DNA of 64,000 nucleotides. Source: Ginglymostoma cirratum. Taxonomy: Eukaryota. This document shows, one piece after another, positions 18,026 through 18,177 of this stretch. The position numbers and the translations under genes were made by a program. The notes under the pieces were generated by a model. It was not told the origin of the DNA. It searched no databases and worked only from the letters and a program-made list of their open reading frames with translations. The DNA lies in NCBI GenBank assembly GCA_024137785.1, contig JAHRHZ010000282.1:310001-374000 (forward strand), given 5' to 3'. The stretch's first letter is position 1. The number at the start of each line of letters is the position of its first letter.

Positions 18026-18177
18026 TGATTTTGTGCAACTCTCTCTCCGCTTTGTGTCTGTAATACTTATCAAGTTCAGGCTGTTGTACAGGTTTCCCCA
18101 GCTCTGTATCTCTGCCACAGTATTGGCCACCATGTTAATGTTTTTGTGGAGCTCTCTCCATGCTCTGTATCTCTGTG
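18026..18177 (-). repeat. 23-RSS of supporting Vdelta plus two tandem RSS-like units
   Basis: CACAGAG-23-ACAAAAACA; GGCAGAG-22-ACAACAGCC; CACAAAG-15-ACAAAATCA, separated by 22-nt linkers. Confidence 0.75.

Follow-up and report, generated by a model that had tools for sequence, protein, structure and literature searches.

The 64,000-nt window analysed here, a stretch of Ginglymostoma cirratum DNA, is part of the cartilaginous-fish TCR alpha/delta locus and carries two NAR-TCR cassettes on the minus strand, each in the order leader, NAR V, D, J, intron and leaderless supporting V-delta. Behind the supporting V of the cassette at 18 kb, positions 18026–18177 (minus strand) hold a three-unit remnant of a tandem repeat of about 61 bp, in which the unit comprises a heptamer, a 23-nt spacer and a nonamer (that is, a 23-spacer recombination signal, or RSS) plus a linker of about 22 bp. 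A longer row of the same kind lies behind the supporting V of the cassette at 55 kb. Supporting V genes are denoted S plus a number, and the features of the two cassettes are as follows.

17801..18025, minus strand: 3′ flank, homologous among supporting-V paralogs
18026..18056, minus strand: unit 3, terminal, heptamer deleted, 31/31 identical to unit 4 of S95
18057..18116, minus strand: unit 2, dead heptamer (no CAC), 22-nt spacer, chimera of S95 units 2 and 3
18117..18177, minus strand: unit 1, V-proximal 23-RSS (CACAGAG / 23 / ACAAAAACA) and 22-bp linker, ortholog of S95 unit 1
18178..18485, minus strand: leaderless supporting V-delta pseudogene S328, AG acceptor 18486–18487, CDR1 Cys retained
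21275..21324, minus strand: NAR J of the 18-kb cassette, with 5′ 23-RSS and GT donor
21698..21713, minus strand: probable NAR D of the 18-kb cassette, read by eye and not listed by a strict scan
22098..22381, minus strand: NAR V exon of the 18-kb cassette, open, its YYC reading CFC; leader exon at about 22532–22574
55130..55471, minus strand: six-unit array of S365, in which units 1/3 and 2/4 form a 121-bp dimer repeat
55290–55350, minus strand: unit 3 of S365, a near-consensus spare
55472..55781, minus strand: intact leaderless supporting V-delta S365, AG acceptor 55782–55783
61036..61087, minus strand: NAR J of the 55-kb cassette, with 23-RSS
61464–61479, minus strand: NAR D of the 55-kb cassette, with 12/12 signals
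61861..62147, minus strand: NAR V exon of the 55-kb cassette; leader exon 62279–62321, spliced to NAR V

The cassettes and their supporting V genes

Both supporting Vs of the window lack a leader exon of their own and are entered through a splice acceptor, with an AG in place at 18 kb and at 55 kb. An extra CDR1 cysteine, given as a supporting-V feature in the available passages of PMC1845163, is present as GFCQ or GLCQ in the 18-kb V and in all five supporting Vs of the genome that are intact. Upstream, each cassette has a NAR V (with a leader and without the WYRQ tryptophan), a D and a J, the 18-kb D being the one read by eye; the signal of the 18-kb NAR V, at 22097, has a 22-nt spacer and a weak nonamer. 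The cassette at 55 kb is intact, and it is transcribed: its NAR J is spliced directly to the S365 V at 61035/55781 in contigs of runs X1, X4 and X10, and its leader-to-NAR V splice is present in contigs of run X2. The 55-kb array is without contig cover at 90% likeness, which we did not take as evidence, and raw RNA runs X12 and X13, with zero reads on the V or the array, are uninformative. The 18-kb V is dead, as an earlier note on this DNA had stated, with a TAA stop at 18379–18381 and its second canonical cysteine changed to glycine at 18199–18201.

Twelve supporting Vs were recovered from the genome by searches at the DNA and protein levels and were named by position. Those with an open frame and both canonical cysteines were classed as intact (S365 at 55 kb, S139, S226, S565 and S115) and the others as defective (S328 at 18 kb, S95, S44, S276, S459, S726 and S116); this split is our own and rests on sequence, with contigs matching S365, S139 and S115. 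Rearrangement of a supporting V to a J-delta is seen in one contig of the paralog S139 (n = 1), which matches, with one mismatch, the third J-delta of contig C115, where ten J-delta-like segments come after the one D-delta found (12/23) and before a large J-alpha block. The J of this junction had no exact match, and of ten shorter matches the six inspected were all due to chance; the J was identified through a 12-RSS pattern. The N region of the junction has just 4 nt in common with the D-delta, too little to call use of a D. Contig C282 is separate from C115, and its linkage to the D-delta/J-delta block is assumed. The TCR-delta block (G000:C115:2610976-2622600; L102, L103) is on the plus strand, opposite to the supporting V S115 of the same contig.

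The NAR cassettes (61036–62147 and 21275–22381, with others on C282 and C115) have IgH-type signals: a V with a 22-nt spacer, a D flanked by 12-spacer signals and a J with a 23-spacer signal. Cross-cassette joins are formally possible, because the 23-RSS of a supporting V, or a spare copy of it, is oriented towards the 12-RSS on the 5′ side of the NAR D in the next downstream cassette. The window also contains two further V-like segments that have no arrays and look defective (about 5200–5520, minus strand, and 30560–30833, plus strand), and a 42-bp tandem repeat of 2.8 copies (43087–43204) with an RSS-like match of 13-nt spacer at 43158 (minus strand), probably due to chance. About 1.1 kb of the 18-kb cassette intron (19229–20266) is 66% identical to 41852–42942, probably as an old repeat element.

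A row of signals confined to supporting V genes

The 53 units that we delimited by hand from profile hits are distributed as six in each of S365, S139, S226, S44 and S565, five in S726, four in S276, S95 and S115, three in S328, two in S116 and one in S459. Thus 11 of the 12 supporting Vs carry 2–6 units, whereas none of 78 other V-like entries does. These counts come from 94 V-like entries, of which five were dropped at locus edges and 89 were scored; among the 78 others were 46 with a credible RSS, nine NAR V signals and one mis-anchored entry for S459. As a control, the first 61 nt from the RSS of each V were aligned to the next 345 nt and compared with 200 shuffles, giving z scores of 6.7–22.7 for the 11 supporting Vs and of at most 2.8 for the 78 other entries, in line with the earlier claim that NAR Vs and conventional Vs have no such array. 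When S328 and S95 were kept out of the profile, the arrays accounted for 52 of its 55 hits across 1.02 Mb, and the remaining three were single (E 0.056–0.77). This profile found all three minus-strand units at 18 kb (E 8.5e-12, 2.8e-6 and 0.012 for units 1, 2 and 3), the number that the note had counted.

A further 0.39 Mb gave four profile hits, at three decayed relics. These relics (C116:383.7k, C116:432.1k and C282:622.6k; L014:1370-1545, L013 and L174:8555-8620) hold remnants of 1–3 units; two are badly decayed supporting Vs, and one is a terminal unit with homologous flank and no recognisable V, directly upstream of which lies an apparent repeat element. They stand outside the 12-copy statistics below and would enlarge the defective class.

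The row is not an assembly artefact, because a contig from a public run spans the S139 V, its array and the flank, with 38 of 40 listed differences being those of S139 and the other two lying beside an indel. The DNA beyond the arrays is likewise homologous between 18 kb and 55 kb, as had been proposed (score 51, reached by 0 of 500 shuffles, the best of which scored 44). Taken together, these data support the proposal that the array is an old feature, specific to supporting Vs, that predates the cassette duplications. A single event may account for the specificity, since the supporting Vs probably all descend from one ancestor.

Whole units are gained and lost

The true comparator for the 18-kb array is that of S95, the sister of S328 in the V tree, and not the 55-kb array with which it had been compared. 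Unit 1 of S328 matches S95 unit 1 at 56 of 61 positions, including 22/22 in the linker. In S328 unit 2, the 5′ part corresponds to S95 unit 2 and the 3′ part to S95 unit 3; one breakpoint fits 15 of 17 informative sites (permutation P = 0.011). Judged from its sequence, the 18-kb array is the S95 array minus one unit, deleted in register. S276 unit 1 is similarly a chimera of S44 units 1 and 3 (17/17, P = 0.0002), with two units lost in register, and both of these chimera-marked contractions fall in defective genes. Units 1/3 and 2/4 are 78–87% alike within S365 and within S139, and units 1/3/5 and 2/4 are 80–84% alike within S565. The chimeras and the lineage-specific dimers establish gain and loss of whole units. 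The postulated variation of copy number by unequal exchange is borne out to this extent, and in-register turnover by unequal exchange is likely, crossover being indistinguishable from replication slippage. The 121-bp dimer (a good unit and a dead unit; window 55230–55471, L002 and L007) seems to have originated twice, once in the S365/S139 lineage and once in that of S565.

Other likenesses claimed between the two arrays of the window hold in part. The spacer and nonamer of 18-kb unit 1 are indeed closer to those of 55-kb unit 2 (29/32) than to those of 55-kb unit 1 (23/32). By contrast, the claimed resemblance of 18-kb unit 2 to 55-kb unit 5 is nothing special (35/60, against 40/60 for unit 3 and 38/60 for unit 1), and its nonamer and linker match 55-kb units 1, 3 and 5 equally (21/31). 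Alignment gives six units at 55 kb, where five had been counted, and shows the supposed unit with a 15-nt spacer at 18 kb to be a heptamer-deleted unit whose apparent heptamer is the start of the spacer. A switch in the type of unit that serves next to the V is not borne out either: the S328 unit 1 linker matches those of 55-kb units 1, 2 and 3 at only 12/22 each, its spacer and nonamer match the majority unit at 28/32 in any case and its closest counterpart is S95 unit 1. The same unit 1 is V-proximal in the Stegostoma model P0022, which has an intact YYC. An AU test did not separate the placements of S328 unit 1 (P = 0.20 and 0.30), and a much older switch of the V-proximal unit is possible. 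The unit tree that had been suggested as a check resolved only close orthologs and left 20 of 38 inner branches open, with 61 columns to draw on; 12 of the 53 units (terminal, under 53 nt) were left out of the tree used for the AU tests.

The note further held that selection keeps the units in register in live copies. Downstream units are in register in 19 of 23 cases in intact genes and in 10 of 18 in defective genes (P = 0.087), which does not sustain that claim. The losses of register trace to four or five inherited indels: two of them also occur in intact S226, another solely in intact S565 and a further one in both S328 and its dead sister S95. Intact S226 has a heptamer deletion and a 7-nt spacer deletion, and intact S565 has two short spacers; the heptamer lesion of 18-kb unit 3 also occurs in S226, as well as in S44 and S276. 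Neither unit 2 (without CAC) nor unit 3 (without a heptamer) at 18 kb could count as a functional 23-RSS. The 18-kb copy is a decayed member of the family within a dead gene, its spare lost, and its value is as a record of how the row contracts.

Traces of the row in other sharks and possibly rays

Arrays of other species were visible only as translated tails of public gene models that run past the end of the V; most gene models end right after the V and so say nothing about the array. Among 27 tails of at least 26 residues, eight passed (seven models and P0062). Tails of Rhincodon (P0007, P0058), Stegostoma (P0016) and Hemiscyllium (P0019, P0026, P0028, P0033) match units beyond unit 1, at scores reached by 0–5 of 1,000 shuffles, and the ENA record P0062, a 1,007-nt contig, reads through five units in register, with the frame shifting by one base per unit. 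Each unit of P0062 has a heptamer-compatible translation, and its row is far better preserved than any in the G. cirratum genome. Unit 1 was matched, but the match beyond it was weak or too short, in Pristis, Pristiophorus and one Hemiscyllium (28, 63 and 162 of 1,000 shuffles, respectively). In the other 16 of the 27 tails, both Callorhinchus models (P0003 and P0021) included, unit 1 was unmatched, and most of these look spliced elsewhere. Metagenome scans yielded no supporting-V DNA of another species, and none with P0001; they returned 55 loci at 28–43% identity and one short piece at 83%, with no array.

Since these tails read through the row, the row predates the carpet-shark genera. It possibly predates the shark–ray split as well, with weak support from the batoid and the sawshark. 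The C-termini of P0007, P0016, P0019, P0022, P0026, P0028, P0033 and P0058 are read-through of the row and are probably annotation artefacts.

Constraint and joining along the row

Unit 1 of S365 is a consensus 23-RSS, and unit 1 of the intact genes shows constraint, with 5/80 mismatches in heptamer and nonamer against 39/224 in spacer and linker (P = 0.015). No such difference is seen in the downstream units, where the figures are 92/360 and 220/903 in intact genes (P = 0.66) and 58/258 and 134/653 in defective genes. In intact genes, the downstream CAC triplets are unprotected (20 changes, 17 expected; observed/expected 1.17). Between the intact pair S139 and S365, the array diverges faster than the flanks (39/303 against 18/276, P = 0.012), and over four pooled pairs the values are 11.0% and 9.7% (P = 0.33).

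Nevertheless, intact genes differ from defective ones in what they retain. They have 6, 6, 6, 6 and 4 units against 6, 5, 4, 4, 3, 2 and 1 (Mann–Whitney P = 0.04), and 5/5 intact but only 1/7 defective genes possess a downstream CAC-bearing unit with two mismatches or fewer (Fisher P = 0.015). The good unit is unit 3, which in all five begins at about +120 to +123 and is near-consensus; by this criterion, one of sequence alone, it has a CAC heptamer, a spacer of 23 ± 1 nt and no more than two mismatches in heptamer and nonamer. Under neutral decay, the probability that all five intact genes have a good spare is 0.02–0.07, or 0.04–0.11 if they are counted as four lineages. The criterion for a spare, the unit-3 group and the intact/defective split are all post hoc, and the 12 genes are non-independent paralogs. 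That the unit 3s form one clade was rejected (AU P = 0.03, the group having been named after the tree was seen). The good unit 3 of S365, S139 and S565 may be a young copy of unit 1. S115 and S226 retain a perfect unit 3, in S115 despite 15/43 differences in spacer and linker. Conversely, defective S44 has a perfect spare in unit 2, the ortholog of which is dead in intact S226. Overall, intactness is tracked better by copy number and one good spare than by register.

In the contigs of four runs, the evidence of joining is all at unit 1: one explicit junction, which continues from 55475, in frame, into a J-delta, and four contigs that stop at 55472–55477. No joint at unit 3 or at any other downstream unit was found in these contigs. 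Contigs drop rare forms, so the data show use of unit 1 and not non-use of the spare. In each of the five intact genes, the V frame runs into a stop (+10, +40, +58, +100 and +100) ahead of unit 3, so a join at unit 3 yields no protein.

What the row may do

We suggest, tentatively and at a little below an even chance, that most downstream copies have decayed and that working genes keep one cleavable spare, which would raise the capture of a V that has no promoter. The row itself would be an old head-to-tail amplification of the supporting V's own 23-RSS and 22 bp of flank. PMC13190342 reports that, in linear RAG scanning at mouse Igk, a strong RSS was by itself enough for a promoter-deleted V to be joined. 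In a supporting V, scanning from the D–J centre would meet the spare before unit 1 and may join there; such a join would be non-productive, yet it would bring unit 1 to within about 120 bp of the new centre, and unit 1 could then re-join to a later, still free J-delta and finish the gene. That this two-step course is what selection acts on, with a selected spare taking the D–J centre in a deliberately non-productive join before the V re-joins a later J, is unlikely on present evidence. If true, it would favour a promoterless V in cis, couple the two NAR-TCR rearrangements and lead to D-less junctions that are biased to distal Js.

The chief rival, which we rate only slightly lower, is that an early RSS duplication seeded a minisatellite of drifting copy number, sometimes refreshed from the selected unit 1, and that only unit 1 matters. 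The lack of RSS-specific conservation downstream, array divergence at or above that of the flanks, good spares that are often recent copies of unit 1, joins seen at unit 1 only and the perfect spare of a defective gene all fit such a neutral relic. Less easily accommodated are the good spare in every intact gene, the larger number of units in intact genes, the perfect unit 3 that S115 and S226 retain and the survival of recognisable rows elsewhere among sharks, including one of five in-register units. On another reading, phased nonamer A-tracts and GAGAG motifs could form a chromatin or loading platform that keeps unit 1 accessible or holds RAG while remaining uncut. Nonamer positions 4–6 and the GA-rich spacer core do have low observed/expected values in intact genes (0.58 and 0.71), and GAGAG occurs in most arrays against 2 of 46 other V spacers. 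Defective genes, however, give similar values (0.52 and 0.64), GAGAG is found in only 2/6, 3/6 and 1/4 units of the expressed genes S365, S139 and S115, and the evidence from mouse relates to the J segments found in recombination centres; we consider a platform improbable. Counts of GAGA and AGCT do not separate intact from defective genes.

Spares might instead act as decoys, drawing joins into dead ends and thereby restricting or slowing the rearrangement of NAR-TCR. A unit-3 join would be non-productive in every intact gene, but unit 1 would be left intact, nine further J-delta-like segments could rescue the gene and no unit-3 joins were observed, which makes this very improbable. Least credible of all is that the CDR3 loop is lengthened by translated array when a join falls at a downstream unit: the V frame is open up to 100 nt into some arrays and P0062 reads through five units, but unit 2 is without CAC in four of the five intact genes, the fifth meets a stop at +10 and in all five a stop precedes unit 3. 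The retained cleavable spare remains our preferred reading. It bears on a system that requires two V(D)J joins on a single chromosome and in which the supporting V, having neither leader nor promoter of its own, must compete with many ordinary Vs; the row is the first cis feature that sets supporting Vs apart. Even if neutral, it is a reliable annotation marker for NAR-TCR cassettes, relics included, and it explains odd C-termini in public shark gene models.

Comparison with known systems

The NAR-TCR supporting V system of cartilaginous fishes was reportedly set out by Criscitiello et al. in 2006. In the available passages of PMC1845163, PMC12227049, PMC6795676 and PMC5931798, the supporting TCR-delta V is, as here, a leaderless V with a CDR1 cysteine that lies behind a NAR V-D-J, has the NAR J spliced on and makes a separate V(D)J join to a J-delta; the present analysis adds to this the repeated signals, up to six in number, and the turnover in how many there are. 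RAG requires CAC and obeys the 12/23 rule, according to passages of PMC12711392 and PMC9723617 and in part to general knowledge. Unit 1 and several spares fit the canonical 23-spacer RSS of those passages, with a CAC heptamer, a 23-nt spacer and an A-rich nonamer. Normally, however, there is one such signal at the end of each V, and the downstream units here are mostly without CAC or a good nonamer. Secondary rearrangement at mouse Igk, as available passages of PMC13190342 present it, is alike in that a first join sets a new centre beside an upstream signal that joins a later J. At Igk, different V genes replace each other, whereas here the two signals would be those of a single V, and a productive first join would be impossible.

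A repeated RSS behind a supporting V does not appear in the passages available from PMC12227049, PMC3457774, PMC1845163, PMC6795676, PMC12772690, PMC5931798, PMC12711392, PMC9723617 and PMC13190342, and literature searches listed no description of such a row; Criscitiello 2006 and 2010 and Ott 2021 may show one. The supplement of PMC3964593 has no match for NAR-TCR, RSS or recombination signal. The row is genuine and specific to one class of V, and it is an apparently undescribed feature in a receptor system that is itself known.

Minisatellites with higher-order (dimer) repeats evolve by unequal exchange. The row resembles them in its period of about 61 bp, its chimeric units, its in-register gains and losses and its lineage-specific dimers, and differs from them in that its unit is a functional signal and its first copy is anchored by selection.
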